Positions 10,475 to 44,808 of a stretch of 64,000 nt of DNA are shown here, one piece after another; within the stretch, counting starts at the first letter, position 1; the number at the start of each line of letters is the position of its first letter. This stretch comes from Catajapyx aquilonaris (taxonomy: Eukaryota). The stretch lies in NCBI GenBank assembly GCA_000934665.2, contig KZ538307.1, forward strand, positions 1 to 64,000. Direction: 5' to 3'. The notes under the pieces are model-generated. The model worked only from the letters and a program-made list of their open reading frames with translations. It was not told the origin of the DNA and ran no database searches. Made by a program: the position numbers and the translations under genes.

Positions 10475-10508
<34 letters not shown>

Positions 10509-22434: not shown

Positions 22435-25400
22435 CTATTTCTTGGGAGTTTTTGCCCTAGCTTCAGACATTTTGGGTTTTCCTTCCTTTGAGATTTTGGG
22501 ACCCGGTTTGGCTGGTTTCTTTTCAGCTTGCTTCTTTCTGGAAGAACTTATCTTTCTTCGCACAGATGCCATGCTACCTGTGGCTGAGGTGGTTCCATGG
22601 AGTGTCTCTTGTTGCAAGGCATCCCTCTCCTGCTGCACGAGCCGCTTGTGACGCCAGATTTCCTCCTGCTCATAGTCTACCTTGGTACACTCCCAGATTA
22701 TGTCACAAAAGTCCAAGAAGTTTATCTGAAACAATGGGTAATTGTAATGTAACTTGCTGAGAAGCTTTATTTTCAGAAATTAATATGAACAGCCACATGG
22801 GGCACTATATGCAATATTAATTCTGGGAAGGGTTGATTTCACTGCAAGCAATGATAAGGTGTATATTTTTTGGTATTTGCATGCTATAGCTAATCATCAG
22901 TCATGTGTTTCAGTGTTTGTGTGTACTGGCACTGATATTGAATTACTTTACTACACGTATGGGTATGTGCCACATTGCAGTTATTGTGAAAGAATTGTGG
23001 TCACTAGTTCCATGCTGTCAACCTGAAGAAAGACGTCAAAGAAAATATTTTGGGGAAAAAGTGAAATGTAAAATGGGAAATATTTAAATAGTTAGAATGA
23101 GGCAGATCTAAAAGCCATCATATGTCGAAGGCCAGTATACTGTTAGTACTGAAGTCAGTTAGTCTTGTACCTCAAACTCCATGTAGAGATCTGTCCCATC
23201 TGGTCCGCCAATAATGTTCGGGTAAAGTTTCCTCATCTCCTGCACCAGATGATCTACTCTGACGTACTTGAGCACTCCATCTAGGTTAATCGGTTTCACC
23301 TGAGGACACTTGTCCTTCTCTGCCAGCACTTGTTGCACTGCATCATCAATGGTTGTGGTCACTTCTGCATGGGCCGTATCCATTAGCCTCATCTCCTCCT
23401 CATGTTCAGCAATAGTCTTCCCTACTATCCGGCGAATGAGGTCTCGTGCAGCTATGGGTGCCCCATTGGAATTCCCACATGCACAGAACAGCTCGTACAT
23501 GAGTAACAGAGGTGGAAGACCCTCTCGATGCCACGGCTTTTCATCACCCCACCACCACGACCTGGCATTTTCCGCAGCGACTTCCGCATCTGCGGTGTAT
23601 GGTGGCTTAGGAGGTGCCCTTCCACTATAGCAATTGGGGAGCACATCTTCCTCAAGGAGAGTTCGTAGGGCCTTGGCCATTTTGGGGATATATCGAGTGA
23701 TCCTTTCTTCTTCGTTCTCATTTTCATTCTTCTTCTCATTTTCTGATGCCTCTTGAGAGACCGTTGGAGGGCAAGGGTCCCAGTAAAGGAGCAAAGCTGC
23801 AGTACACAAGTACTCCAGAAATTGATGGAATGCCAACTCCTCAAATGGGTTGTGATTCAGGCCACCCACTATTTTGGCTGTAAATGTATAAGAAAAGCAC
23901 ACATCATAAATACAGTTTTGTACAATTCACCTCTTGGGCCCTCTTTAACTTACTGTACTTCACTTCAAGTCTTGATGGGGTGAGGCGCTTCTTTTCCAAC
24001 TGGGCTTCCCTTGCGATGAGCCAACAACCCATCTTGGTCATGGTGCTGACACCATCCAATGGAGGTGTGCATTTCCCACTTCCCAGCCAAGCATACCGGT
24101 TGTACACATCCCTGAGCTTGTCCACATACTGCAGCACCATTTTGCCCATCCAGATAGACTCTTTCACAAGTTCGGGTTCATCCTCTTCTCCCAGAAAGTG
24201 GGCCAAGAACACTTTCCAGTCGCAAAAGTGGCTTGAGACATGGAAGGGCACCACTTTCTTTTCCTGGTTGCACATCAACTTGTCAACACGAAAGAGGCCC
24301 GTGAACACCATTCCGTTAGGAGTGGTGTAGGTGCCTGACCCTTGACGCAAATTGTTGCACCACTCTCCCTCGTATATGGCTCCTGAGGAGTACCTCATAA
24401 TTCCAAACCCATGCCTACATCCGTTGAGCCACTGCCCTGTGTAGGAGGTGCGGAAGGTCTGGGCCATTGGGAGGAGAGTGGGCACATACCACGTGTGCTT
24501 CCCGTAGCCGTTGGGTTTGCCATGCCCCCACTCCCCAGCGTAGCTTTGCATCACCTGGAAATGGGACGGAAACGATCAATTATGTTGTCCTCAGATTTTC
24601 CCTTCGTGCCATAGGAAAAGCAGTGCAAAAAAGTTCATGTAGGCTTGAATCGGCTATCTAAAATAGGAAATAAATAAAAACGAATGTCCCAGGAAATGTT
24701 TCAAAAGGGAGGAGGCAATTTCATAAAAGTTCCAACTACGCGTACATTAAATACGGGTTTAAGGTAGTCTCTCACTCTCTAGGCACGTGTGTACTGTACA
24801 ACATAATTCATCTCCTTCCTTCAGAGATGACGCTGCCAACAGTGCCCAGAACTGTCGCCAAGAAGTATCCCATCGTAAATTTTGGTTCCCGAGTGCTCTG
24901 CTCCTCATTTCCAACCTTCTGACAGCAACTGCGAAATATCTCACATCATGTTGTCCTTCTCCTGTCCATCTCTTCTGCTTTTATCACGAGAGATTTTTAT
25001 CGGGCGAATTCCTTTCACGGAAGAAAGGACTGTGCAGTGTAAACTTCATCTCATATCAAACAATATTAATATCCCGCATTTTTTACTTGCTGTGTAGTAT
25101 GTAACCTACCTTCTTTATACGTGTAGGCCTATAACAATAATTATTGTCTTGCTACTCCAGTATGTGAATAGGGAATTGTCTTTTTGTTGTGTGCATTAAC
25201 AAAAGTACAATCGTGGCAACCTCTAGGAATAACGGCCCTTTCATAATAACTGTTGCACCACATTCTTTGGCACTTCGCAAGTCCTGTGCATGCAACTGAT
25301 TTATCTGTGCAAGTACAGTGTCGTCTTTCCCTGCTTCAACGTGCCGAGACATGTCATACCCTTGCATCATGCCTTGCATGACGGAATTCAATGTGTAGCG

Positions 25401-26562
25401 AGAGAGTGGAAGTAAAGTGCATGAGGTTAAAATCCGCCAGTTCTTTTTTACTGGTCAGATGTATAGTAAAATAATTGCACTGTTGCACTTTTGAGAGCGT
25501 TGACGCCACACACGGCCGGGGTGGTGTATACTCCCCACTTTTGTAACGAGTTGTGCATTATTTATACTTGAGGAAACAACTTGTTGGAAGCAACATTCTG
25601 TTAAATAAATGCATCCAATAATACGTGTACTTACACATCCGTTCTTGTCTTTCCAGATCATGGTTCCTCTCCCACACTTGATTCCTTCTAACCAGTGCCC
25701 CCTGAAGACATTTCCAGTTTTGTAGTGCCGCTCACCCCATCCCTGCCTCATCCCGTTCATGAGGTAACCATCAAAGTAGTCTTGTGGTCCGTCGTATAAT
25801 ATTCTCCCCTGAAACAGGATTCAATAATCTTCATATCCTGTAGCTTCTACACTGCGAATGTTTCTCATGACGTTTCACTAACCTTCCCGTGTATCTTCCC
25901 GTGAGACCAATCCCCCGAGTATCCCCGTTTGTGGTCCTTAGTCCTGAAGGTCCCAAGACCGTGTTTGAGCCCATTGAGCACTACACCCTTGTAAGTACTG
26001 TGGTCATCCCACCTGTAGAAGCCACATCCGTCAAGTTGGTTGTAGTTGAGGTCTCCTTCGTATATGATCCCGTCATCCCACTCCAGTCGTCCATTCCCGT
26101 GCATGTACCCATTGACAAATGTACCCTCGTAGTACAGGCCAAGTCCGTAGTCCACACGAGCCCAGCCGTGCAAGTAGTTGTTCTCTAGCACCCCGCAGTA
26201 CCTGGAGGAATATGCAAGTGTTAACTTGGGTTCAACAAGTTCAGTATAGCCGTGAACTCTGACCTGGGGATCGTGTGCGGTGCGAGTTCCATCACGAATT
26301 TGGGCGGCAATCTCGGGGCCGGCGGTAGGTCGGATTCGGGTGTCACTTCAGGTATCAGCAAGCTAAGGGTAAATTCCAGGGAGGGGCTCCTCTCTTTGAT
26401 CGCTTCTTCGTCCTCTTCTCCGGGGTGGGCAATGGACATGAGCGATCCATCTTCGTTCTCTCTGCCTGACCCAGTACCTCTGCCTGTTCGACTGGTGACG
26501 CTGCCGCGTGGATCTGATGTCTGTCTGCCCTGCTTCTTTTGTGGTTTCGGTTTCGGCCCCAT
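22435..26562 (-). CDS. RSPH10B: Radial spoke head 10 homolog B-like MORN-repeat protein, 6 coding exons, about 796 aa
   Basis: complement(join(22435..22725,23171..23877,23954..24554,25635..25808,25883..26201,26264..26562)); GT-AG introns with consistent phases (2391 nt). Tandem MORN repeats (YEGTFVNGYMHGNG, YEGEWCNNLRQGSG etc.) followed by RSPH10B-like C-terminal blocks (NPFEELAFHQFLEYL, EFEINFLDFCDII). Confidence 0.85.
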
Positions 26563-26576
26563 TTTGCCTCTGTGTG

Positions 26577-26590
26577 GTTACCAAGCAATC
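26577..26590. promoter_or_regulatory. RFX X-box-like motif in the RSPH10B/CFAP65 divergent intergenic region
   Basis: GTTACCAAGCAATC is one mismatch from GYTRYY-N1-3-RRHRAC and lies 14 bp upstream of the RSPH10B ATG. Confidence 0.45.
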
Positions 26591-27352
26591 GACTATGGTG
26601 GTTGATCAACAATGGTTTTGCATTCTTTCGTCTGCTGGGCCCGTCACTCCTGACTGCAACAGGAGATTCATATGTCATTCAGAGATCTCACGGTTAGTAT
26701 GCCACCTGTCTTTTGCATTATGCTTCATTGTTTTCATTAGAAGTCATATAGTGATATTTCAATACTGATTTCTGCATATGGAAAGAAAGCTTAACGTAAC
26801 TTGGTACGGGATGAATCGGTGGACAAAAAACAACAAGCTGGTCTTATCCACCAGAAGAAAACTTTGGGAAGGCCACAGAGCGATTCTGAAATTAGCACCT
26901 TGTAGAATCTGATTTCGCCTTTCCATCACAGTGTCAAACGCGTCTAGTCGGTTGGAATTGAGAAAACAGGAGGAGTGTTTTTGCAAGTATAAAGGAGGTG
27001 GCAGCAGGCCGTATGCCAAAACTGGAATCTGGAATGAAGGCTGCTGGGTGCACAAGGTGGGGAGGGGGGGGGAGGGGTGTGGCTTTATGTTTGTTTGTGT
27101 GATTGGGCCAAGGATTAAAGCTGAGCACCGCCAAGGCATGCCTTGGACACTTATCTCCATGCAACAGCTGCTGCACAGGAATGGTCCACTTTAGACATAA
27201 CTTCGTGTCGTCGCTTGGCTTTAACTCCACGTTGCATCACACGCATTGTTGGAGTCCACGCAATTGCTTTTGTAGGTTTTAATCAGTCCCAGATATTCCC
27301 ATCTATTGATAAACATTTTTTTGGTTACATTTTTGGTCAGCTCTGAGCAACG

Positions 27353-30300
27353 ATGCAGTGGCCTTCGTACAAGGTGCCAAGAGCGGAGGAGCCTGCTGGT
27401 GTCATCATAGTGAGGTTTGACAATGTCATGGTGGAGCGTACTCAAATCAAGCACGTGTTCCTCGTCAATAGTCGCACAGTGAGTCCATCTTCTAAGACCA
27501 TGCTGCATCACCATAATGCGCACAATTTCATATGGTGCCAGGCGTTACAGTGAGGCTGAGGCATTTTTTGCATGCTTTTGTCCCCCCCTTTTTTGCAGGG
27601 CGGAGCTTGCAAAATAAGAGCAGTGAGGACCTTGAGGGGGGCGAAGGTTTTCGGGGGGTTGCATGAAGAGAGAAGGCCGGGACAGCCATCTCTTTTTAGC
27701 TGTCTGCATTTTGCTAACAGGAACATGTCTCTCATTTCAGACCTTAATGGGGACGATGGAGATTGCATTTTGAGGGTACATATAGTAACAGATGGCCTAT
27801 TTGTCTGGATAGGGAACTTAGCGACATTCCAAAATGCAGGTGCACATATATTTTTTAAAAAAATTACGGGGAGTCCGGTGGTTAAAAATGAATCACAGGG
27901 TGGCAGAAGAGAGGTAGAAAAAATGGAACATCAGAAGTGACTCCTGCTTGGCTCTCCTTCTTTGATACTTGGCAACACTAGTGGGGCTTTAGGTTTGGTT
28001 ATGTGGAGGCCAGAATAGTGCGCAGTGTGGAGTGAGAGGTGGCGAGAGGTAGGGGACACACTTACGTGTTGCTATAGTGTTTTGGCCGCTTCTCCCTCAG
28101 ATGTGTGTGGTGGTCACATGACCAGGTTGTTTTTACAAAAAAGTCTGGAGGATACAGTCTGCTGTTTCCAGCCATTCATGATAAAGTAGGGTACACTGCA
28201 CTGGGTGTTTGCGACCGAAATATGCTTCCTTGCTGTTGGCCTCTGAAGATTTTCTATGATGTCGATATACTGTATAGAATAAAGTATTTTGGGGAATACT
28301 GAAATCGACCAAATAATATAAAATTTAGCACGGACAAATAAAACCATTAGCGTAAAAATGGCACATTTTCTAACTACAAAAAAGAGGGACTTGTGCCTCA
28401 ATGGGACTATCGAACAAAAGTCTAATTAACATGACAACCGAAGAGATATAGCGATTCTAATTATAGCGGAATACAACGTTGACCTGGGGAGACCTACATT
28501 CGAGTGCAATCTCTTCCGCTTAAAAAAACATCCTTGAAATCCTATAGAATATGTAGAAATCTCTCGGAATTCCCTACAAAATTCTTCGAATGATGGTCTT
28601 CTCAGTTCCCTATAGAAGTAGCTGTTGTGTCACCCCACTGTGTAGCACCCAAGCCCACGACCATGGTGCGTCACATAATTATACTCGCACCTGCACCTCC
28701 TGAACAAAAGGGGACGTAGTGGTGTATGGAAAGCATATCTTCGACAGCATGCAGTGCACGTGCCAGAAAAGCATGGCCTCGAAGCACGTCCACCCACGCC
28801 CCAGTCTGTAGCACCGCCATAGTTAAAGGGGGGGCATTCCCCCGTTTGACAATGCGTCTTCGAGACTTGCCAACGTTTTGCTGGGTGCAAAATCTTGGCA
28901 TCGGCGCAAATGGTTTCGCGGGTAAAGAAGTAAATGTCCGACGCTTGTTGCTACGACGGTATGTGGCGTAATCGGCAAGGATCGACTCAAACGACGAGGC
29001 GGCTTCCGTTGTGGTAACGCGTCATGCCTTAGTCCCGTTTGACTAAAGAGGAAACAAGTGAATCCCCCATACCTTTTTCTTAACCCCCCCCCCCCCTTCC
29101 TCCTGATGCTTTTTGTAATCAGAAGCTCCTGGCAAAGACACAAGCGCTTCTTCCGGGTGTACAGTCTCGCCTCGAAGAAGCAGCTTTGACTAATGATGTG
29201 ACGTCGCGTTTCTTCACTCGTCTTCCGGACGCGCGCCCAAAATGCTTCCAGCTAACTTTTTTTTAAATCCTCTCCGGCCCGGCTTATAAGCATAAATATT
29301 AAACGTAGTCAGGTGTGGAGGTAAGATAGTGCAGGTGGCGCCAAAGACAGAGTTATGAAGTAAACAAATTCATCAAGGGCTTGGTTGGTTGGGTCTGCAT
29401 TGCTTGGGTGTGGGTAATGCTTGGCATGCTCTTGTCTAGTTTTTGCAATTCGAAGCTTGTCCTCTTTTTACGTTCTGTATGCGGGTAATTCTCATTTTTA
29501 AACAAAGATTAATTAATAGGAAGATATTTAGGAAGTTTGGAGTGTATAAAATGAGGGCAGGCACTAATAGTTGTTCTTAGAGTGCAGTGAGGGTCTGTTT
29601 GTTCTTATCATACTTTGCTGCTGTCAAAGCCAAGCCGAAGCTGTAAACATCGGTGTGCGCGGAGAGCTTTGCGTTGACTCTTTAGGATATCCTTTGGGTA
29701 AGATTACTTCTGGGGCTGAGGGTAATGAAGTGGTTGCCAAAATATGTCAATTTAAGTTTATGTTGCACAGAGAACACGTGGCGTCTGGTAACTTTTCTTT
29801 TTAGCAAAAACAAACAATGGGACGGTTTTTAAACAATATTTCCGATTCCAAAGAAAACGTATAGTTGTACGTGTTAGTGGCGACGTTGTGACTATAAATG
29901 TGATTGCAAAATTACAAAGAATTTGATACATACACATGTATAGGGTAGGATACCAAAGGTGCATGAATTTAGCCCATTCATGTTGTTGTATATTTATGAC
30001 TCATACGCATGCCACGTTTCCACAACTTGCAGATGAAACGACTTGTAAATCCATAGTGCTAAGTATTTCTGTAGAGAAAAGCAATTAGCAATGAGTAAGG
30101 AGTGTGAATCCAAAATGGATACTGCCCGAATACTTATGGCCTATGGCCAGCGGCATGATGGGTAACATCTGAGCGGTGACATGCGCTCTGAGTTAACCAT
30201 TCTGGCATTCTTCTGATCTCGAAAGTCAGATGATACAGATGGTCGCCTTGCTGAGAGTCAGGCCAATTCACGGTCCAGAACTTGTGATTATGCAGATTTA

Positions 30301-33300
30301 ACGGATTTTGTCAGTCACTAATGAATGGAGCAATGAAGAATTGCAATAAATTAGGCGCGCATGGTTGTAACATGCTATATATCTTAAATAATTGCTCAGG
30401 GAAAATGCCTTCTTGACAATAATGCTTGGTAGTAGTACGTAGATGTATTTTTAATGACATTTTTATTTTCCTCACATTTGTGCCAGGTTGGAGATTGCCT
30501 TGATATACACTACAGTATGATTCCATTGTACTATACAGTATGATTATTTGGCAATTAAATATAATATGTACACAGTAATAATAATATAATATGATAGGTA
30601 ATAGAACCCTGCCTGTGTTTCAGAACAATGGGGACATATGTAATAGTAATACCACACTCTCAACTACAATATTGGGGTCATCCACTGAATGCGCCGTAGA
30701 GCAGGTAAAGTCAGCACACAACATCAGTCATGCAGCGCCAATGCAATGAACAAGCAATGGTGTATGATGCACAATAACAGCCCCAAGTGTACTGTACATG
30801 GAACTTGTACAAATATTTCCCCTAGTCTTTGTCACTCCTTCACAATGTTGTGAAACTTCTCCACACATTTAGTTATCTCTGCTTCCTGGCAAATGTATTG
30901 CAGAAGCTGCATTTTTTGAAGAGGCGGTTTCCAAGAACGTGCTATTAATGGTGGCCACACTTACGCTCTCATTATCAGTTTTCCCCCCTTTTCATACTTA
31001 AAGTTTTTTTTAAAATCCCACTCGAGGCTCATATCCTGCACTATCCGAAGAGTTAAAACCGTTCGACACCCTTCGGCGTGAAGCGAAAAGAAGATGAAGT
31101 GTACTGGCCCCATTTTACTCCTCTCCTGCGATGCCTGCAAAAATAGGGTCCCCCCCCCCTCTCTACATATCCCCTGCCTTCCCTTCCTTACACACCACAA
31201 CACTAGTGGTCCCGGAGCCTGCTAAAAATTCGGCTTCCATCTTCTCTCATCCCCCCATCCCCAGCCGTGTCTGCCCCCACACAGCCCACTCTAGACTTGG
31301 CCTAGGTATACACCCCTCTTTTGCTATTCTGGGAAGCCAGCTAGGCATTCCAGGCCTGATGTTGAAGCTAGAAGGAAGGAGAAGGTGGAAGGAGGATGTA
31401 CCTGATCGACGATAGAACCTGCGAACATCGATATGGAAGGAGGAGGAAGAGGAGGAGTCTGATGTACAGGTGCTGCTCTTGCTACATACTTATCATGCTC
31501 ACGGGGATCCTGACCCGGAAGCACCACCAGGCACCTCAAGTCTAGTCGAGTGAGTGTCGTGCCATGTATCTATTGATGTTTTTTTTTCTTTTTTTTTCTG
31601 AGAAGTATGATTTTCCATGCGATGGGTACTCGAAATGTTGTAGTAGAGTGCACGTTATGGTTGACGTCATTTTTCTGGCGCTTTTGCAGATATGTGCAGC
31701 ACTCCAGCAACGGTCTTAGCCAGAAACTATTTGTTAGAAATTCATCTTGTACGTTGAATAAGATTTAACTTGTGTGAGTTCTAGGTATGTGGTAAAACCA
31801 TTTGAAGGGCTAATAGTAAAATATCACATATTCATGAATAGTTCTGACTTCATTGATTTGTCGTACATTATCATTAAATAACATACGACATAAAACTATT
31901 AACACTGCAGTGTGCTTGTACTGAGAAGTATATAAGAAAAGTCTATAGTTGGAGTACTTCAGTTAATTGGTACACGACTGGACACAAAAATAGTAGGCTA
32001 TTCACGTATATTTCGTAACGTTGGGGTGGTGAAACATTCTGGAACTGATTTTACGTTCTTTTTTCCGGAGTGATGTGCAACTCAAGTGTTGAAATAGGAG
32101 TGCAATGCAAAAAGTTACACATGATGAAAAACATATGGGGTTGATACCAGTCTATGCCACATTTTTGCGCCTTTTAGATCAAACCAGAGTTTGATAACAA
32201 AATTTTTGGAAACGTAGCATTCCGCTTCGTGAGTAACTTACCACTTTTGTCTAGGCATTCTCACGAGCCTTCTCATAAAACTCATGCCGCATTTGTTATT
32301 TTAAGTAGGCCTATAGAGTACCAATAATCCAACAAACCAAGTTCCGCATTGTTGAGGATAATTTTTCTTGTGGCTTGATTCAGATCGAGACCGGTACACT
32401 CTGTCCGGATCACGACCCGCTGGAGCAGATTGGATGGGAGACCTACCATGGTCAAGGAGTGAATCCTCGTGTCGTGGCCCTAGTGTTCTTCGTGTGACAC
32501 ATGGATGTGTGGTGGTGGTGGTGGCACCTCCCCTTCCTCCTGATGGCGTTGGGTACCACGTACTCTGCCCCACCGGACAGTCCCGACCAACCGCAGACAA
32601 CGCGAGCCCCTGGAGAAATGATATCTCTTTGCCACAACTTCACCAACGGAAACGACGACCTGTACGAGTTCTACTCCCCAAACTACCCCGGGGAGTACCT
32701 TCCGAACATGAGCTGTCACAAAGTGATTACAGCCCCCGAAGGCCACGTGGTCAAGGTGATCTTCATGGACGCGTTCAACGTGGAGCTGAGCGAAGGATGC
32801 CAGTACGACTACCTCGAAATTAAGGACGGTAACTCGGGTTCGGCTGTGGAGCTGGCACCAAAGTTGTGCGGACATGAGTTCCCGGATTTCATCCAGAGCA
32901 CGGATCGGTACATCTGGCTGCATTTCCACTCGGACAGGGAAGTGGGGTACACGGGGTTCAAGGTGCGCTACGAGTTTGTGAGGATTGAGACCACCAAAAT
33001 GCCGTCTGTGGAAGGGTGCAGGTACACCGTCGAGGGGTACTCTGGGAACATTTCCAGTGAGGATATCAACGGGTCGATGATACTGTTCACGGAGGAGACC
33101 AACGCTCCTCTGGACTGCATATGGACCATTCAGGTCCGCGATGGCTGGCAGGTCAGGCTTAAGTTCTTCCTCTTTAAGCTGCAAAAGCCCAACGAGTGCC
33201 AGAACAATTTTTTGCACTTGTACGAGCAGAAGGAGGAGGTGACGGACCACATTGTCAAGTTTTGCGGAACCATTGCTGAGAGTAAGAGCAGCACGTCCAA

Positions 33301-36300
33301 CGCGATGCAAATGAGATTCTTTGCCACGAAAGAAGCACTTAAGTCAAAATTTGAGGTGAGATCTGAGGTATTGCCAGGTGGGAATGTTTGTATACACTGC
33401 GGCCATTACCAGCTGTCACCGACACATCGTTCCTATCGTTACACAGTCCCTTGGAGAGATCCTGTTTCCTTTGTAATGACTGGCTTTAGTTATGCGGTCT
33501 TTATGAGGAATGTCCGTGTCGATATTCGACTATTTGGCACCCAAGGGGTTAACCACTTCGGTTCTCCGGTATACACCTGCAGTGGTACTCCCAGGTACTC
33601 CTTAGGTACTTTACTCTTTGGTACTCCTGGGTTCTCTTTGAATTTGGTACTCCAGTGTACACTTTACAGTCTAGTGGTTAACCCCTTATTACAGAGGGTC
33701 AGGTTACGGATTACGCGAGGAGCGAACTTTGCCATCATATCATGTAGTCATAAATCTTTCTGAGAGATAATATTTGCAGTTTATATTTGGAATACATTTT
33801 TAATAACTCCAAATAGTGTGTGCAATAATGCATTTTTGTTTTTTTGTGGTTTAATTTCTCACTGACGAGTTATGATATTCGAATGCTTTGCTTGTGGCAT
33901 TATAGGTTTTCTAAGAACGTCGGCGACAGCTAGATACAAAGCAGCGTATACACAGTAGTATGTAATACGAGTATTGCAATTTGTATTTTAAAGCAATATT
34001 TTAATCACAATGTGTCCAAGTTGTTAGTTGATGGATCATGCTACAGAACGCTTATTTTGATGTGCGTCTACTGGCACAATTAATTTATTGTTATTGTGAT
34101 TTTTGTGAAACTGCTGATATATACGAGTTTTATTTCCCATTGTGCACTTTTAAGGGTCAACATTATTTTATTTTATTCATATATACATTACACATCACCT
34201 GAGGTGGTATGTCTATGTTTAACTGGAATTTAGCAAGCACTCATTTTAGTTATTTGTTATTTGGGCTTATTTTAATACCGTACACTTTATACAGACTAAC
34301 GAGTAATTGCAAGCCAGGAAAATACGTATAATTTGTGCCCAGTTATTTAGAATGGCGTAGGACCGTATACCACGAATAGAATGACTAGCTTGTTCGCTGT
34401 GGTCTCTGGACAGATCGTGTTAGTGTGTGTTTATTCTCAAAAATGTTGTAGGCTATATTACTACATGAATTCACGAACTGAAAAGTGTTAACGCTGTCCA
34501 GTCGAAGATTTACTGTGCATATTGTGCAGTCCACCTTATAAAGCATCTCTGACAAATGGGATTACTTGAAGTGAAAAGATGGTCCTACACCAATTTCAGA
34601 GGTGTTTTAGGGAGACGGAGTGGCGCCGCGGTAACGCGTGCGCCCACGGAAGTTAAGGTCCCGGGTTCAATCCCCACCCGGGGTTCCCACCTTCTTTCGT
34701 GCAGAGTGAGACCGTCTCTGGCTTCGTTTTGGGTGGCGATCCTTTCACATATGCCACCCGGGGGAGTTCACAAAACGGCACATCAACGACATTGCACACG
34801 CACTTTGCACATCCCCTCCTACTTACCCTTGGAACACACTAAATACTATCTTAGTATACCGGTTCCACCCAAATGGTGGTATTCCACCCCCCTAAAGGAA
34901 ATGTAACTCCCAATGGGGTAATGCAAAAAAAAAAAAAAAAATTCAGAGGTGTTTTACATCCTGTACAAGACATTTGTCGACCGAAGTTACTTCATTTTGG
35001 TTGGGATTGTGGATAAGACTAAAATAAGGTCGGGGGTCACCTCTGCTTTAAAAACATATAATATGTGGACGACAACATCATGGAACTGCATGGATGTGTC
35101 TTACCAATATAGAGATGTGCCATCCAAATGTAATGACACTTATGACAAATCACTGTTCCATTATATTCATTTTCTTTCTCCCTCTCATCAAAATAATTTT
35201 AAGGAGTATATATCAGGAGATTACTCTAATTGAGTTTTAAAGTTAATCATCTTTAAAATACTGTGATGATCAGCTTCTACTCATTTGCGTTTATGTCCAT
35301 GATTATTATTTTCTCTTATCCGATAGTTTTAAGAATGACTAATCTATACCAAGGCTTGGTTTCATATTGTACATAACCATCAGGTCCTATTTATGTCATA
35401 CGAGTAATTGAAAAACTTATCCATATGCATTTTATGAGCTTTGAAAATCCCGATATGAAAATTATAATGTAGCATTTTTTTTCAACTTGATTTTGCCAGA
35501 CACCGCCCTGAAACTGAAATTATTTGTGTGTTTTTTTCTGTTGCTCCGAGGTAATATGGGAGGGAGGGAGAGTCCACCTATTGTACGTAGAAATAGGCCA
35601 ATAGGCACATGCATGAATTAAAATATTTGATGAAAAAGATGTGCAATGATGGTGGCCTAGACAAAGGATATAACCCAAAACATTATGAGATTTATCCTTG
35701 GTGCATGCAACCATCATTGCACATTTCACATGATATTATTTTTAATAATACAAAAGTGGTGTGGGGCTCCGAGGTACATATAGTAACGGGTAATTATTTT
35801 CGACACTTTTATAGCGGTGTGTAGAACTTTGCAACTCAGTCGATAGAAAAACCGAGTGTCAGCACTTATTTTTCTGCAGAAAGCCAAAAGTAGTACTTTT
35901 AATCAGTAACGATTTAAAATTAGGGACTAGCACTAGTTAGTACAGTACTTTTATTCAATCAATGCCTGAGTTGATTCAAAGTTTATGTGGCATGTGGAGT
36001 ATAAGGTATACTGCATATTATACTGTATATAGTAAGTTATTATTTTAAATCTAACACCTGAACGTTCTGTGCTCAGGACTAAGGGCTGTCAATAGCTACC
36101 TTGTGCAGTACATATAATTATGTGATGTTCAAATCTCGCTAGAAGACAGAAGATGTGTTCATTACCTCTTATTCAGCCTTATGTATCAGTCATCAAAGAT
36201 ACAACCTGATGGCTTTGATGTTGGAGCTTTTTAATCCAGTTCATATTGTTTAGAGCTTATCGTGCTAGACAGCGGCACTGTCTACGCGATTCAAAATCTC

Positions 36301-37479
36301 GCTCATTTCATGTGAACACTGTGAGCGATAACTACGTGCCATGTGATACGATTTTGTGCCACATGAAGTAGAGCAGCACTTTTCATGTGGCACCCTCACG
36401 AGATGTGTGTCAGCTCTGTGAATGCCCTCTTTAATAAAGTTATGAGGCACAAGAGGAGTCTTTTCATGAGATTCATCAAGGCACACATATACGCAGCACC
36501 AAGTAGAGCTTGCTGACGTACTGTTATGTACACAGCGGTACGCAGTCATATGAGTACATTATGTACTGTATAGCCTTATGGCCAACAGTAAAATAATTAC
36601 TGGAGCCCATTGAGACATTTGTGCAGTAGTGAAGATAGATCAGATCAGTACAGTATGTTTTTGTTGTCTTCTTGCTGCATTTGAGCATCTATGGTCTACT
36701 CCACCTAATTATACTCCGTCTCTTGGCACTTAGGCAGTGCACCAAGCTATACGAGTAAAAATACATTTAGGCCATCCCCCATCCGTGCTATGGCATTCGA
36801 ATCGACCACTCATTGTGAATGGGAATCTGATGTGCTAAACTAAATACTGTAATAAGCATACTACTCCGTATTACATTACAGTAAAACTATATCGGCTAGG
36901 TTTCCTAGAGGCCGCTGTTGAATAACCAAATCATGTATCATAAACAAGTTTGGCAAATCACGTGAGCGTGATTAGAGTAGACTTTTTCATGTTTACGGCT
37001 ATTGTCCCCATCGTCCGTTACGAGATTGAGACCGAAACTAACAATAACTCATTTTCGGCCAAAAGTGGACTTACCCTCTCCCCCCTTCCTCATCCTACCC
37101 CCAGACCGCCCCTTTCCCATTTAAAAAATCTATCCTAGCAAACTCATCTTTTAGACCTTTTTCATCAATCGAAAAAAGTCTTATAGCTCTGTCCGTCCGT
37201 CCGTCCGTCTGTTGACAGGTATCAGGGGGTTGGAGGAGGAAGGGAGGCAATGGTGATCTGGCGGAGGGGGCGCGGGCGGTCAGGGGTAGGGGATGGCGGG
37301 GGAAAGGGGCGGTGGAGGTAGGGGGCAGCCAGGGGGAAGGTGCGGATAGAGTGAACCCGGAACCCGAAAATCGCAAAAAAGTCTTATACTCGTAGCACGG
37401 CTCTGTCTGTCTGTCTGGTCTGGTGGGAATGGGCTGTAAGGGTAGAGGGTGGTGGGGGCAGCCAAGCGGATACCTGTCC

Positions 37480-37518
<39 letters not shown>

Positions 37519-40500
37519 TGGCCGTTCTATAAGACTTTTTTTCTCGAAAAAGTCTAAAACATCGCTACATATTGTTAAGTGCTGGTAAAATGTGTAGTAA
37601 TCGTATGCAAAATTATCATTTGGTGTAACATATAATATTATATTGTGCTTTACGACTGATACGACATTTCTTGTCACCTTCAGGTGATGTTTACGGCATT
37701 CCGCAACAAAAGCAAAGCAACCGAGAACTGCACCGACGACGAATTCGACTGCGAAGACAACACGTGTATCAGTGGAGCTCTGAAATGCGACGGCCCCAAG
37801 AACTGCCAGCACGAGTGGGACGAGAGCAAATGCGAGAACAAGAACGTGAAGAGCGACTTCGACCTGGCCAAGACCAGCAACCTGGTCATCCTGATCCTCA
37901 CCCTGCTAATGGGCTTCGGCATGCTCTTCGCCTTTGGCTTCCAGTGTGTCCGGAAGCTCAGGCAAGACAGGGAAGATATCCAGGAAGAGGTTCGACGCTC
38001 CAGGGAGCTCCTGGAGGAAGGAAGCGTCAGGGTGTCGGCTGCAGCCTCGGTACCAGCGCCGGTACCGTCGCAAGAGACGCTGCGCACCACCGGAGGAGGC
38101 AGCATGGCCAAGTACACCAACGGGGAAGTGGTGCTTGCGAACAGTTACAGTGCGGGTAACGCGGTGGACCAAGAGGTGACCGTGTACGGAGACTACGAGG
38201 AAGACGATGAGGAGGAGGAGCGGTGCGTCGAGATGCGGGACAACGCGTGCCAGACGCGAGACAGCCTGTGGGACACCAACTGGGACGGAAGCACCAAGGA
38301 GAGCGTAGCGTCCAAGCCTTCGTCGTCCTCCCCGGCGATACCACCTAGAATACCGATGGGCCGCAGGTTGAGCGAGAGGCCGCCCATACCCACCTCGCAG
38401 CAGGCCCACCACCGGCCGTCGCTTCCGACGACTTCGGCGACAACCGCGCCCACCGAACCGCGTACATTCCACGCCGAAGCCAAGATTGAAGTGGCCCCGG
38501 GACAGCAGCGCCCGTGCAGTTTAGATTCGAGCAAATCTGCTCCTGACGTAGTCGTCACTCACTGACCTTACCACACACACTACAACAAGTACACTAATAG
38601 TGCGGCTTATATTTATGTGCATTTTGCTCAGGTATACACGCAAAAGTTTAGGCAGTGTCGAAGGGGATTGAAAAACTAAGGTCCAACGGTTTGACTCTTT
38701 GTGCTTTTCATACAGTACCTGTCCTTACCAGTCTGGAATAAACCCGGGTGTAAACATGTGTCCGTTTTAATGTCCCCCCCTGCTGTGTTGTTTCAGCGCT
38801 CTGTGACCTTCACGATTGAGCATGATGGGAAGACACGTCCACTGGACAGGCTGTTCCGGTATGCACCAAACACCGGTGTCATCCCTCCGAAGAGCAAAAC
38901 TGACATCAAGCTGTCCTACAAGCCTCGCTTTCCGGACATGGAAAACCACGAGTTCTACAAAATCAATTGCAGCACCGGAAATTACTTTCACGTATACCTT
39001 TCAGGGAACTGCACTGGTAAGACTCTGACCACCCCACTGTCGCCTTGTAACACCACTGCCTTCTCGACCCACAGGACCACAGGTAGAGTCCCAGGACAAA
39101 GTTGTGCGATTTGGACACAACAAAGACGGGTGCGTGACAAGCAGGGTGATCCAGCTGTCCAACTTGTCCGAAACTCCGGCCAACTTCTACTTCGACGTGG
39201 ACCCCTTGTACAGTGCCTTCCGACTGGAGCCCACTTGGGGCCTCATCAAGCCCGGAAAGCAGCAACGCATAAAGGTCACGTTCCTTGGGAAGAAACCACA
39301 CGTGTACGCTAGGAAAGTTGTCTGTCTGATTCATTACCAGGTGAGTGTGCATAGGTTACATAGGCCTAGTACCAAGTTAACTGGATCCGGTTCTGTCCAT
39401 GTTGACATGCAATAAGATGGCCTACAAGTTTGCATATTATTGCTCTCATACGTTACGTCGTATCTAGACAGGGTCCACTTTACTTGATGTGCAATAATGG
39501 CTCTAGTGGGCTTGGCCTGATAATCTCCTGAGTAATAAACAAATCAAACCATAATTGATCATCTTGACATACACACTTCTTGCAGCCACCTATTTCCTTC
39601 CACTTCGTGTATACCAATACGAAAAAGTTGCTTCTGGATAGAATAGTCATCCCAGTTCATGAAATTGAGTTGCCAGAGCAGGAACGGTATGAAGCATATC
39701 TGGCCGATTCTTTGAGCGCATTTCAGAATCGAACCAATGTGTCTCTGCGAACCAGATTCTTGCAGTTTGGATTATGTGAAAAAGAAAAGGTAGCGTATGT
39801 CCAGCTAAAGGTTACAAACCTGTCTGATAACATGGTGACGCTCCTGTGGAATACAGGTACGATTATGATGTCCTGATATTGTTTGGAACTGGTTCTAACG
39901 TTACGTGTTCTAGTTCCGGAGCACGTCTTCCGAGTGTCGCCTGAAGCCATGTCTATTCCTCGGATGAACTCCGTGGAGTTTGAGGTGTCATTTAAGCCCC
40001 ATACCAGTGAAATGTTGTACAGCAGCGAAATTGAAGGGTACGTGCACCGTGCATGCAAGCACTGCCAGTGTTACCAAGGACGTGGAGACTTGTGCCTCTG
40101 TGCGGCTTGCAATCTTGATTCAACTGGCAAACTCAAGTCGTTGCCTTCCTGCATATCCTTCCGAGCTGAAGGTGAGGAATTATATTTTATCCTCGCATGA
40201 ATAGGCTGTCACAAATTAGGGGGTATTTTGGGTACTGGAACCATTTTTTTACCTGTCGTCTAAAAGCTGAAAGTAATAATGTTAAGATTATATTCTGCGC
40301 ACATGCTGTGCACAGGGTGTTCCAAGTTCGTGGGTAGTTTTTAGTTATAACTAATATCGTCCGAAGTAGTTATTTTTGTGTAGCTTGTTGAGCCGATCCA
40401 GCGGGTCCCTCATTATCACGCCTCATTATTATTACTATCAGGTGGTCGAATGTAGCAGTGGCTATAGAATATAGGGTATACCTGGACTGGGGCGCAACAG

Positions 40501-43500
40501 GCTACAAAAACATAACAGCTTCGAGAGAAATTTCCTATAACTAAAAGGACTAATATACTTGGAACACCTCGTATTATTTAAATATTGCAATTATTTATTT
40601 ATTTATTTTTTTAAAATTACACCCTTGAAGCCTTCAGGCTTATATAGGGGGGAGGTTTTTCGACCATTTTCAATCTCTCCGGTGCTAGGATGGAGGGGGG
40701 GACAGTGGTGCAAGTGCAATGTCTCATGGCGGAGGCCGTGTGCAGTCCCCCAGAGGGCTTAGGTTGAAAGACGACCCTCTAGGTGCGGGTAAGAGACCTC
40801 CCACAAACACCGCACCTCCTCCAGTGTGGGACATGGATAGGAAAGGTAGGAAGCGGCTGTGGCCTACGATTAGGAAACAACTCCGGTATTCACCTGGGGG
40901 TGACCGTGGGAAACCACAGAAAACCACGGTCAGAGTTGCCGGCCTGGGGATTTGATCCCTGGACCTCCCGATTTGCAGTCGGATACCAAATCCCCTCCGC
41001 TACCACTGCTTCGGTAAATATTGCAATTATAACAACAACAATGGGAAAATGCGGGAAGATGTGGCATGGGCTCAAACTCGAAAGTTGACAAATCAAGATG
41101 AAACCAATTATTTGTATGATCCGAATCCATGTGTGACTTTGGATTATTTTTAATTATTCAAATCCCCGTCCAGGTCATTCATGTCTAAAATTACTCCAAG
41201 AGGGATCACCTTTGGCTGAAGTGATTTGAATACAGGCCTACTGTCAAAAATGCATTTCTTACACTATTCTGATGAGTTTATCCTAAAAATTTATGTGACA
41301 CATCATAATGTGCCAGTTATCAATCTCTGATTTCAGGTCACAGTTTCAGGCCAGGATGCGAACCTTGGGCCCCTCATTTCATAATGAGGCCGAATGAAAT
41401 TTGGATGCCGCCCATGTATCCCGGATCAAATAGTGCTACTACTCTACTTCTCTCACCTAAGAGTGATCTTCCAGTCATGTTTAATTTTCAACTACCCCCT
41501 GACAGGTAACAATGACACTGACAATGAGCAGTTCACATACCGTACATATTGTAGGTACTGTATTGTACTGCAGGCTAGCATTGGGAATGTAAGCTAGATT
41601 GTTGACATTTATGGTAGCCAGTATTATACTGTATTTCAGATAATAAAATGACATCTTGATTTCTCAGCCCTTACACGATTAAGCCTTTGGAAGGATTGGT
41701 GATGGGAGGTCCCCAAGTCATCGTAGTTAACCTTCAACCAAAGGTGTCGAGCGAAACCACAGTTTATTTGGACAGATGTCGCATGCAGGTCAACGTCGTG
41801 GAAGAAAACGCCATTTGGTTCACTATACGCGGAGAAGTCCTTCTGCCCTTTGTAGATTTTGGAGAGAAGGGCATGGTTCTCTTTGACGACACCATGGTCG
41901 ATTCAGTGAGGAAAATTATGGTTCCTGTCATCAATACTACTAGAGAAAATGTGTGGTAAGCACTCCTATTGCAGCCTTGACCAAATATAATAATCAGTAC
42001 AACTTACTAGATGATACGTAATTATTTGATAGGTTTAAAGTTATTCATCCAGTGGAGGACGAAGAGAAGGATGAAAATTACGTAGCCGAGAAAAAGAAGG
42101 AGGAATTCACATATGTGTTTTCCGTTTCGGATCTGGAAAATCAGTATTTCCTGAAGCCAAATCAACGAATATTTCTGGAGTGGGTGTTCCAACCCGCTTA
42201 TGCAGAAACATATCAGCAAGTGCGACCATTGCGAGTTTCTTTCTTGAGCAACCCTGATGCTACATTTCTTCCAACGTTGATGAAACCAGACTGCATTCAT
42301 ACGCAAAACGTAATGGTCTCTTTGATGGGAAGAGGAATCAAGTCAGATCTCATTGTAAGGCATTATATCAAGCTGTCATCCAACCCACACAAACAATAAG
42401 TTATTATGTCATATATTTATTTTTAAATAGGGTGACCCAAAGCAAATGAACATGGGCTACTTGACTATCGGAAAAGAGTTTACAGAAAGATTGACCGTGA
42501 CAAACGAGAGCGACTGCGATATGGCCTTCTTCCTGGAAGTAACGTACTTACAGCCCTGCGAAACGTTTGACCACCAAGTGGTTCGCGCCGACGTGGTCAT
42601 TTCCCCTGCGGAAGGTAAGCTGGCCCCAGGAGAATGGACACCAGTGATGATGACCTTACGGCCCACTGAGGTTGGCACTTGCCACTTCCAAGTGTCGTAC
42701 AGAAAAGTCGGAGGGTCACTCAATCCGGTGACCAATTTCAAGTTCATCGGTGCAATACCTTACATTCAGATAACTGACATTGTGTGCGACGGGTCTGGAA
42801 TCATCATAGGAAGGTCACGGCTGTGGTCCTTGCTCGAGCTCAACAGGCTGAATGAGACGTGGAGAAAATTGCAATTTCCGGATAATTCAATGTTCGACAT
42901 TAAAATTCCGGGAGCGGTGGAGGGCACTGGTGACCTCCACATCAAGATGCGAATCACTAACCCGACAAAAGTACCTGCTGAGTGGGTAATGAAAGTGCCC
43001 AGGGTGAGACACGAGAGGGTGGAGAATCCATACTGGTACATCCCACCCCTACAACAGTTGTCTCCAGAGGATAATAGGATACAAACTATCCTGAAGGCCA
43101 ATATAATCGAAGTTGGTCCTGGAGAAGGTATCCTACAACCTTCCGAGTCCGTTGAAGCAGTTATCAAGTATAGGTTCACGCATGCCGGAGAGCATGACGT
43201 GCCCCTATCCTTCGGCGTCAGGCACCACAATGTGATCAATGCGCGTTTGGTGGGGAACACTATCCCGAAGACGACTCCGCTAGTGCAGGTTTTCACCAAA
43301 GAAGTGAACTTGTACGACGTCTCCATAGAGGATGCGGATCCTCCCATTCAGATCTTCTGGTTGTTCAATCCGACGCACGAGGAAGCTCCGTACAAGTTTC
43401 TTGCCAGCTCCTTCAAGAGCAGGGCCAAGCTGGACGTGGTGTGCTGCAATCCTGCAGGAACCGTCCCGGCACTGTCATGGCACCCAGTCAAATTCCGATT

Positions 43501-44808
43501 TCGACCAATGGAGGAAGGGGCTTACATGATGATGGCTCCACTTCAGGTAAACGGCCAGACAATGGTCACGGTGTTTCATGGAAAGGCCACCCTGTACGAC
43601 ATACCTCGAGAGGGAGAATTCCGAAAGCAACTTACGCCCAGGATACCCATGAACTCGGATGTGTGTCCGGTACGGCTAGATCCCGATCAAATCTTAGTGA
43701 CTACAGGTGTGGTGCCATTGGTAGAGCACAGAATCGTATACCTGACCAACACATCTAAAACTAGCATCATGTCATTCAAGTGGCATCCGACGTCGATCAG
43801 GGCGGTGGCAGATATCACTGTCGTGCCTCCAATTGGCAAGCTGAGCCCTGGGCAGCAGATCAGCTGCAAAGTAATGATGACCCCTGGCAATACATCATCT
43901 GCTTTCTCCGCTGAAGTATATTGCACACTGAGAGATGAATCAGCTCAGCTGTTGTACGAACGACAGGTCGAGTTGCACCTGGCTGACATAGAAATGGCCA
44001 AAACGGAATTCACCATTACAAAAAGGGAGCATAGTGAAGGAGTAAGTTGGGCAAGGACCTGGGTATTAATTATTACGTTCACATCTGAATCAATTTCACT
44101 AACAGAAAAGTTTTTTGCAGCGACCCATACGATTTGAATATCCAGGCAAACCACCATACCAGTCTGTTGTGCTGACCGCATGGGTCAGTTACACCACGAG
44201 GATGTATGCTTCTCTCAACTATCCTCTGGAAAGGCTTATGAAGTTACCTCCTCCGGGAGACATACCTCCTAAGTTCAATCATGCTCCTAAGCTGTCTATT
44301 TCCTTGGCTGAGTACAGTTGGTACATGCAGTTGATGAAGATGATCATAAAGTGAGTTCATTTTTTCAGTGCCCTACAATTACACCAGGTGCCAGGTGCAT
44401 TGTTATAGCCTTTTACTGATCCGTAGTTCCACACCCCGTACTATAACACATCCCTCGACATGTTTCAGAGACGCAGTCATGGACAAGGCATTCGTTACTG
44501 AAATGGACGTTGAAGGATGTCGACCCCTTCCATATTACCAACAGCTTCATGTCACAAACTTAGAAGCAGAAGCGATGAAAAAACAGCGCAAAATGTCTTC
44601 GACTATGATTAGCGAAGTGTTGGAGAGCGTACTGAACAAGTCAGTCGACCACATGGCGTGCGAGGGCGTTAGGGAAGCCTCCCGAATCCACCCCACACGT
44701 AACCTGGAAATATTTCTGGAGGAGAGGGACAGGTTCAGAAAGCAGAAGAAGACGCAACCACTGGGGACCAAGGACCTCATTCTACCTTTTACCCCTGACC
44801 CATACTAA
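27353..44808 (+). CDS. CFAP65: Cilia- and flagella-associated protein 65 (CCDC108)-like, tandem MSP/ASH Ig-like domains, 11 coding exons, about 1366 aa
   Basis: join(27353..27478,38797..39016,39075..39340,39586..39856,39914..40171,41337..41505,41668..41955,42033..42354,42431..44041,44121..44350,44469..44808); GT-AG, phases consistent (4101 nt). Motifs recalled from CFAP65: GNCTGPQV, IQLSNLSETPANFYF, RKVVCLIHYQ, RAEGHSF. Exon 41337-41505 is not in the ORF track. AATAAA at 44842-44847. Exon 1 (VRFDNVMVERTQIKHVFLVNSRT) completes the ASH domain that continues at 38797. Confidence 0.85.
29150..29326 (+). promoter_or_regulatory. Possible promoter / non-coding first exon of the nested Neto-like gene
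   Basis: CpG-rich patch with CRE-like TGACGTC (29199-29205) and a strong donor GAG|GTAAGA at 29321. Further donor-like sites near 31549 and 31785 and an acceptor at 32383 could form 5'UTR exons. Not provable from sequence. Confidence 0.3.
32501..38565 (+). CDS. Neto: Neuropilin and tolloid-like (Neto) protein: signal peptide, 2 CUB, LDLa, TM, cytoplasmic tail; 2 coding exons, 578 aa
   Basis: join(32501..33355,37684..38565), phase-0 GT-AG intron; in-frame TGA just upstream of the ATG. CUB motifs FYSPNYPGEY, CQYDYLEIKDG, LCG, LDCIWTI, KFCG; LDLa CTDDEFDCEDNTCISGALKCDGPKNCQHEWDESKC; TM LVILILTLLMGFGMLFAFGF; tail motifs VEMRDNACQTRDSL and SKSAPDVVVTH resemble insect Neto tails as I recall them. 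Confidence 0.85.
33553..33677. mobile_element. Small TTAA-flanked element with internal GGTACT repeats
   Basis: AAGGGG-TTAA-CCACT ... AGTGG-TTAA-CCCCTT; several GGTACT(C) units inside. Confidence 0.5.
34610..34941 (+). mobile_element. tRNA-derived SINE, family A (copy 2), in the Neto intron
   Basis: 15-bp TSD TTCAGAGGTGTTTTA (34595-34609, 34942-34956); A box TGGCGCCGCGG, B box GGTTCAATCCC; A17 tail. Confidence 0.92.
37149..37559. mobile_element. DINE-1/Helentron-associated (HINE)-like element
   Basis: Terminal AGAC(C/T)TTTT..AAAAAGTCT stem-loops, inverted AAAAAAGTCTTATAG repeats, (GTCC)n/(GTCT)n and (CAGA)n microsatellites, T/A-run flanks. Confidence 0.65.
38737..38742 (+). terminator. Candidate poly(A) signal of the Neto-like gene
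   Basis: Only AATAAA between the Neto stop (38565) and the next host exon (38797); followed by GT/T-rich TGTGTCCGTTTT. Confidence 0.55.
40313..40571. mobile_element. Tc1/mariner-type MITE
   Basis: CAGGGTGTTCCAAGT ... ACTTGGAACACCTCG-TA, with subterminal TTTTAGTTATA / TATAACTAAAA. Confidence 0.65.
40595..41014 (-). mobile_element. tRNA-derived SINE (family C head and body plus family B module)
   Basis: 16-bp TSD TAAATATTGCAATTAT (40579-40594, 41015-41030); body GACCGTGGTTTTCTGTGGTTTCCCACGG..TAGGCCACAGCCGCTTCC shared with the 20059 copy; (TAAA)n tail. Confidence 0.88.

Follow-up and report, generated by a model that had tools for sequence, protein, structure and literature searches.

Approximately 10% of the genes of Drosophila take part in nested structures, and in the published survey of these 71.27% of the nested genes lie on the strand opposite to the including gene and ~29% (28.7%) on the same strand (PMC3814207). 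Among the same-strand nested genes, 72.53% consist of a single exon, which the authors read as selection against mis-splicing, and nested genes tend to testis bias (PMC3814207). In the mouse and human, nested genes are reported to favour long 5' introns, often the first, with orientations described as 'broadly similar' (PMC11694760). Here we describe a stretch of 64,000 nucleotides (nt) from Catajapyx aquilonaris (contig KZ538307.1, positions 1 to 64,000, forward strand; hereafter the window), in which a Neto-like gene is very probably nested, on the same strand, inside the first intron (11.3 kb) of CFAP65. CFAP65 is a flagellar and ciliary protein.

The pair resembles the including/nested pairs of Drosophila melanogaster in that a protein gene would lie wholly in the intron of another, with no exon overlap and with a hazard of mis-splicing (PMC3814207). 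It differs from the majority of that survey in being same-strand and in the presence of an intron in the nested gene; the survey also assigns the testis bias to the nested gene, whereas here the host, CFAP65, is the flagellar gene (PMC3814207). As in the reported mammalian host/nested pairs, the nested gene occupies the first and by far the longest intron, and same-strand nesting of this kind is not unusual in the mouse and human (PMC11694760). The mammalian pairs pose the same questions of premature polyadenylation and isoform choice (PMC11694760). An earlier note on this DNA had stated that nested genes are mostly antisense to their hosts. This agrees with the Drosophila figure of 71.27% (PMC3814207) but not with the 'broadly similar' orientations given for the mouse and human (PMC11694760), so that the rarity of the arrangement was overstated. 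Among 10 papers naming both CFAP65 and Neto, judged by title and the opening of the abstract, none describing this gene arrangement was found. The arrangement is real but ordinary: it is a further example of the less common subclass (same strand, with an intron-bearing nested gene) and no new phenomenon.

At the protein level, the nested gene is like vertebrate NETO2 (7f56 chain E, with a kainate receptor) in its order of two CUB domains, an LDLa domain and a transmembrane (TM) segment, at nearly the same residue numbers. Unlike NETO2, the Neto-like protein is divergent and has a long, unrelated cytoplasmic tail, and a role at glutamate receptors is putative. The host protein is like CFAP65 and Chlamydomonas FAP65 (9ijj chain h; 7n61 chain 1B) in its immunoglobulin (Ig)-like array, which keeps the same order from domain 3 up to the C-terminal region. 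Unlike these proteins, it is without Ig domains 1-2, as are those of beetles and a sawfly, and it is 20-31% identical to any ortholog found. Knowledge of the CFAP65 and Neto families is unchanged by the locus.

Probable nested arrangement of the Neto-like gene within CFAP65

The exon structure, intactness and identity (as CFAP65 and as Neto-like) of both genes, and the continuity of the domain that the intron divides, are demonstrated here. CFAP65 intron 1, which holds the nested gene, extends over 11,318 nt (27479..38796, + strand); the other resolved introns of CFAP65 measure 57, 58 and 245 nt. On the left it is bordered by the CFAP65-like first coding exon (27353..27478, + strand) and on the right by exon 2, which begins at 38797. 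Both boundaries are in phase 0, and the join is predicted to complete Ig domain 3 of CFAP65. Between 27478 and 38797 sits, wholly contained, an intact same-strand Neto-like gene of two exons with its own stop codon and AATAAA. The coordinates, taken together with the domain continuity across the intron, would place the nested gene entirely within one host intron, without a common exon. All coordinates and signals of these three elements are as the earlier note gave them, and its statements on the phase-0 join and on the intact nested gene held up on re-analysis.

Pfam analysis of eight further open reading frames (ORFs) of CFAP65 intron 1, on both strands, returned no family, so that neither a transposon nor another gene was found among them. 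The search for long repeats flanking the nested gene, which would be a sign of recent insertion, gave nothing beyond a (CAGA)n tract and matches that were short or attributable to chance.

Probable first coding exon of CFAP65

Exon 1 opens with an ATG at 27353 that has an A at position -3; it is 126 nt long, with 42 stop-free codons, and ends in phase 0. The donor reads ACA|GTGAGT, and the letters directly after the exon are GTGAGTCC. Because an in-frame TGA lies at 27344-27346, two codons upstream of the ATG, the coding part of the exon cannot be extended in the 5' direction. Its content is a short leader followed by the first strands of CFAP65 Ig domain 3.

For the profile analysis, a CFAP65 profile was built from the first 750 residues of 72 ortholog representatives, each 1550-2000 amino acids in length, and was used to scan every six-frame ORF of 12 amino acids or more in the window (3139 in all). 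The exon-1 ORF alone matched profile positions 232-260, and exon 2 begins at position 258. The exon-1 ORF was the only weak match collinear with the CFAP65 exons; the other weak matches had E values of at least 6 and were not collinear. The earlier note had proposed alignment of the exon-1 peptide to CFAP65 orthologs, and the peptide aligns in register with the start of Ig domain 3.

The join itself was assessed by taking every + strand GT upstream of 38797 with 26 open phase-0 codons before it (n = 777), fusing each of these donors to the exon 38797-39015, and scoring the product against the 72-ortholog profile. The donor at 27478 ranked first of the 777 with 58.6 bits (mean 40.7, standard deviation 1.0). 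The second rank was taken by a shifted site within the exon-1 ORF (48.1 bits), and the top unrelated donor reached 45.5 bits. As baselines, exon 2 alone scored 41.6 bits, and the product that begins with the in-frame ATG 38770 scored 41.1 bits. With exon 1 joined, the profile was covered from position 233 to 326, compared with 258 to 326 for exon 2 alone. The Pfam match of exon 2 begins only at position 12 of 76; the first strands of Ig domain 3, which exon 2 lacks, are thus provided by the exon-1 peptide.

In most CFAP65 orthologs, two further Ig domains (~230 residues) precede the point at which exon 1 begins. None of the 3139 ORFs in the 64-kb window matched profile positions 1-230 better than E 12, and Ig domains 1-2 were likewise not found by tblastn of three orthologs against the window. 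However, eight of the CFAP65 representatives begin at profile positions 200-243, near their own N-termini, and thus at domain 3. Six of these eight are named, and comprise five beetles and one cluster with a sawfly CFAP65. The CFAP65 model from the window aligns to these insect short-form N-termini, with a methionine, a short leader and then the 'V-x-F-x-x-V' strand. The missing Ig domains 1-2 look like a lineage variant rather than a failure of CFAP65 membership, and the ATG at 27353 is most likely the true CFAP65 start. The gene would then be a CFAP65 of the arthropod short type, with its first coding exon at 27353-27478 and its protein beginning at Ig domain 3; the earlier note remarked neither on this nor on the divergent MORN gene that exon 1 faces. 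The short N-terminus may be general in arthropods.

The assignment of exon 1 as a coding leader of the Neto-like gene was also considered and rejected. The sole acceptor-like site in the vicinity (ccctag|, before 32484) is out of frame with the Neto-like ATG at 32501, and a fusion of exon 1 to the Neto-like gene is also disfavoured by the ATG that exon 1 has of its own. The segment 27353-27478 may serve as a non-coding leader of the Neto-like gene.

Downstream exons and identity of CFAP65

Exon 2 (38797..39016, + strand) contains the remainder of Ig domain 3. The acceptor before 38797 reads GTGTTGTTTCAG|CGC, the exon starts on a codon boundary of the ORF 38695-39309, and it ends in phase 1. 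Pfam assigned exon 2 to Ig_CFAP65_4th (E 2.7e-6, profile positions 12-76 of 76), and the ORF 38695-39309 corresponds to ortholog profile positions 258-332 (E 2.4e-12). Exon 3 (39075..39340, + strand), for which the splice sites were read, encodes Ig domain 4 (Pfam Ig_CFAP65_4th, E 2.2e-16), and the ORF 39029-39412 matches profile positions 326-416 (E 3.8e-21). Exons 4 and 5 (39586-39856 and 39914-40037, + strand) are separated by an intron of 57 nt. Their ORFs, 39568-39873 and 39877-40197, correspond to profile positions 492-554 and 555-600, and residues 491-612 of the Anneissia ortholog match the region 39586-40037 in tblastn.

Further CFAP65-like exons lie within 41309..44134 (+ strand), in the ORFs 41309-41506, 41660-41956, 42022-42396 and 42431-44134, of which the first three are known by ORF only, with approximate splice sites. 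The ORFs 41309-41506 and 41660-41956 correspond to profile positions 624-678 and 684-774. The ORF 42431-44134 matches a C-terminal CFAP65 profile with E 6.7e-91, and the top PDB matches for the large exon are the structures of CFAP65 (9ijj_h, E 3.8e-17) and of Chlamydomonas FAP65 (E 2e-11). The Pfam Ig_CFAP65 9th, 8th and 7th families were found above cut-off within these exons. A probable C-terminal exon (44350..44805, + strand) is weak: it is collinear at profile positions 941-1032 with E 0.51, and Pfam found no family in it.

In the ORFs 39029-39412 and 42431-44134 taken together, the CFAP65-specific Pfam Ig families PF24507 (60.4 bits, cut-off 27), PF24816 (80.1 bits, cut-off 24) and PF24291 (60.7 bits, cut-off 27) were above cut-off, as were PF25248 (31.8 bits, cut-off 25) and PF25249 (34.2 bits, cut-off 28). 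A word-index search returned five proteins, all named CFAP65 or CCDC108, and in an exhaustive search 218 proteins reached E ≤ 0.001, the top ones 26-31% identical. The order along the protein is kept, from profile positions 232 to 774 and then from 11 to 1032 of the C-terminal profile, and also in tblastn with three orthologs. On this evidence from domain families, searches and collinearity, the gene downstream of the Neto-like gene is identified as the CFAP65 ortholog.

The introns 39017-39074 (58 nt) and 39857-39913 (57 nt) are very short beside the 11.3-kb first intron. An in-frame stop at 39874-39876 falls within the 57-nt intron and is no defect of the gene.

Characterisation of the Neto-like gene

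Exon 1 of the Neto-like gene (32501..33355, + strand) starts with an ATG and encodes a hydrophobic leader and two CUB domains in 285 codons, ending in phase 0 with the donor TTTGAG|GTGAGA after 33355. The intron (33356..37683, + strand) is 4,328 nt in length, and contains a repeat of the short interspersed nuclear element (SINE)-like type at 34610-34941 and a (CAGA)n tract at 37480-37522. Exon 2 (37684..38565, + strand), preceded by the phase-0 acceptor CACCTTCAG|GTG, encodes the LDLa domain, one TM segment (protein residues ~352-372) and a long cytoplasmic tail in 293 codons, and ends with a TGA at 38563-38565. The product is a protein of 578 amino acids with a single stop and the layout CUB-CUB-LDLa-TM.

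The CUB pair was recognised by Pfam (CUB, E 2.6e-39, two stretches), and residues 56-282 of NETO2 (7f56_E) align with residues 56-281 of the query in one stretch (E 1.2e-32). The top Atlas cluster for exon 1 was 'neuropilin and tolloid-like protein 1' (score 0.94). The LDLa domain was detected by Pfam (Ldl_recept_a) with E 7e-5 and 23.4 bits, 0.7 below the cut-off of 24.1. The best PDB match of exon 2 was to NETO2 residues 295-354 (E 6.4e-8), with generic LDLa modules at 4.8e-4 or weaker. Hydropathy analysis identified a single TM segment, as one cluster of hydrophobic 19-mers at residues ~349-374 of 578. Cubilin outscores NETO2 overall through its many CUB domains, but NETO2 is the only full-length collinear match. 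A word-index search with the CUB exon (223 candidates of 231-737 amino acids) returned none at E ≤ 0.001, and the gene is considered divergent because of this result. Orthology to Neto, as opposed to other CUB/LDLa proteins, is putative, and 'Neto-like' appears the right level of claim.

A (CAGA)n microsatellite at 37393-37529, with 25-nt inverted arms that are 88% complementary, lies ~150 nt upstream of the acceptor of Neto-like exon 2.

Alternative explanations

Several observations weigh against the reading of the locus given here. When scored alone in the profile scan of 3139 ORFs, exon 1 was weak (E 0.27), and Pfam analysis of exon 1 alone gave no family. The Ig domains 1-2 of most orthologs are absent from the window, and an undetected upstream exon might join at 27358/27359 (atgcag|TGG); such an exon, if present, would still leave the nesting unchanged. 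The X-box-like (RFX) motif at 26577-26589, upstream of exon 1, is weak, with one mismatch and a chance occurrence of ~15%. Finally, the in-frame ATG at 38770 lies just past the Neto poly(A) signal, with no stop before exon 2.

This last observation, together with the score of E 0.27 for exon 1 alone, would fit a tandem rather than a nested order, in which CFAP65 starts past the Neto-like gene (for example at ATG 38770) and exon 1 is an unused relic or a rare alternative first exon, left over from the time when the Neto-like gene arrived at its place. We consider this unlikely. A start at ATG 38770 brings no gain in profile score (41.1 bits, with 41.6 bits for exon 2 by itself), and the protein would lack the first strands of Ig domain 3. 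Exon 1, by contrast, raises the score by 17 bits and fits the register exactly. Its frame is moreover still open, its ATG has an A at -3 and its donor GTGAGT matches the consensus, while ATG 38770 is placed ~28 nt past the AATAAA, within the polypyrimidine/branch region of a strong acceptor, and reads as intron.

The nested gene might also be an unexpressed or decaying copy, in which case no conflict of processing would arise. The word-index search, in which the CUB exon had no close match, and the LDLa score 0.7 bits under the Pfam cut-off would both be in keeping with decay. This is nevertheless very unlikely: the two exons have open frames of 285 and 293 codons, the splice sites are canonical and in phase 0, there is one stop, and the AATAAA is well placed. 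The CUB pair of the gene also matches NETO2 from end to end (E 1.2e-32), and its LDLa/juxtamembrane part finds NETO2 first (E 6.4e-8). It is likewise very unlikely that an error of assembly, through a wrong join or a wrong placement, put the ~11-kb segment with the Neto-like gene between two exons of CFAP65. Neither edge of the intron has a run of N or a long repeat that could favour such an error, and the sole gap (48 N) is far off. The sequence is continuous through both splice sites, and the Neto 3' end meets the host acceptor within 55 nt.

Predicted transcript processing and the nested 3' end

The AATAAA of the Neto-like gene (38737..38742, + strand) is located 172 nt past the stop of that gene and is the sole AATAAA after it; the 3' splice site of the host follows 55 nt further on. 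CFAP65 intron 1 contains five AATAAA hexamers, with 5.0 expected from composition; the count is at expectation, and it is therefore the position, not the presence, of the signal that is informative. The GT-rich stretch past the AATAAA overlaps the branch region and polypyrimidine tract of the host. Within ~60 nt there are the AATAAA at 38737, a likely cleavage CA at ~38755 and GT-rich elements at 38757-38768 and 38782-38794, and on the host side a candidate branch point (TTAAT, 38767-38771) and the acceptor at 38796/38797.

From this arrangement we infer a splice junction from 27478 to 38797 in RNA, separate promoters for the two genes, and tissue segregation of their expression. Tissue-segregated or otherwise regulated RNA processing, as the earlier note proposed it, is likewise putative. 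To produce the CFAP65 mRNA, the polymerase would read through the whole Neto-like gene, and the spliceosome would pair the donor at 27478 with the acceptor at 38797. Host splicing would ignore the Neto donor at 33355, the strong Neto acceptor at 37684 and the AATAAA at 38737, and the host transcript would be subject to the usual suppression of poly(A) sites within introns. The Neto-like gene presumably has its own promoter. Sperm and ciliated sensory neurons are the only arthropod cells known to have motile axonemes, and in Drosophila the site of action of Neto is the neuromuscular junction. By the families to which they belong, CFAP65 would be expressed in spermatids and ciliated sensory neurons and Neto in muscle and neurons, and expression in different cells is most likely how both genes function.

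The donor at 27478 and the Neto acceptor at 37684 are both in phase 0, and their pairing would give an in-frame chimera of 335 codons to the Neto stop. Direct competition between polyadenylation and splicing is possible because the Neto cleavage zone and the GT-rich elements overlap the branch point and polypyrimidine tract of the host. It is doubtful, though conceivable, that polyadenylation factors and U2AF/U2 compete for the same bases as a compact switch, with the Neto end, the exon-1/Neto-exon-2 chimera or CFAP65 splicing as its outcomes. On that doubtful reading, the overlap of these elements could also protect host transcripts against premature termination.

The locus offers a clean and well-delimited case of same-strand nesting within intron 1 of a flagellar gene, with the nested poly(A) signal abutting the host acceptor. 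Once RNA data are available, it would be a convenient natural test case for the means by which a host transcript passes over a complete terminal exon with its poly(A) site, and it would also suit the question of host/nested mutual exclusivity across tissues. For annotation, the 126-nt first exon will probably escape automatic pipelines, which will probably also place the start of CFAP65 past the Neto-like gene.

Divergent MORN gene and the interval before CFAP65

Upstream of CFAP65, a divergent MORN-repeat axonemal gene (FAP266/RSPH-like) starts on the - strand with a codon at 26560..26562, identified from its ORFs and its MORN and PDB matches. Its exon-bearing ORFs on the - strand are 26221-26577, 25865-26347, 25455-25820, 23904-24575 and 23159-23926. 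Pfam identified MORN in three of the four ORFs tested, and the closest PDB entry was FAP266, a protein of the central apparatus in Chlamydomonas (E 4.4e-21), with MORN1 and the radial-spoke protein RSPH1 next. The ATG of the MORN gene and the ATG of CFAP65 at 27353 are ~790 bp apart, head to head. A shared ciliary/flagellar promoter region is probable because the two axonemal genes are arranged in this way. The interval between the divergent starts contains the X-box-like motif (26577..26589, one mismatch); such matches number 13 per 64 kb, which gives a ~15% chance of one in the interval and makes the motif weak evidence. The window has a single perfect X-box, at 20126, with no start anywhere near it. 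The MORN/CFAP65 interval also contains a perfect 16-bp palindrome, CCAAGGCATGCCTTGG, at 27131-27146.

Other genes, repeats and assembly of the window

A multi-exon gene for HADHA (mitochondrial trifunctional enzyme alpha) lies upstream of CFAP65 on the same strand (8113-16109, + strand). One of its exons is 67-70% identical to crustacean orthologs, which ranked at the top, and all of the named proteins among the best 120 matches were from arthropods, which marks the window as arthropod DNA. No tRNA genes were detected in the window.

Self-BLAST identified repeat copies at 10496-10840 and 34610-34941, at 18073-18181 and 40695-40802, and at 20076-20255 and 40827-40996, which are 76-83% identical and in some cases inverted. 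These dispersed repeats lie between genes as well as within introns of HADHA, CFAP65 and the Neto-like gene, and are probably SINE-like elements. The single assembly gap of the window consists of 48 N at ~7.6 kb (7600-7700), in a dinucleotide-repeat tract that translates as SL and ER repeats.

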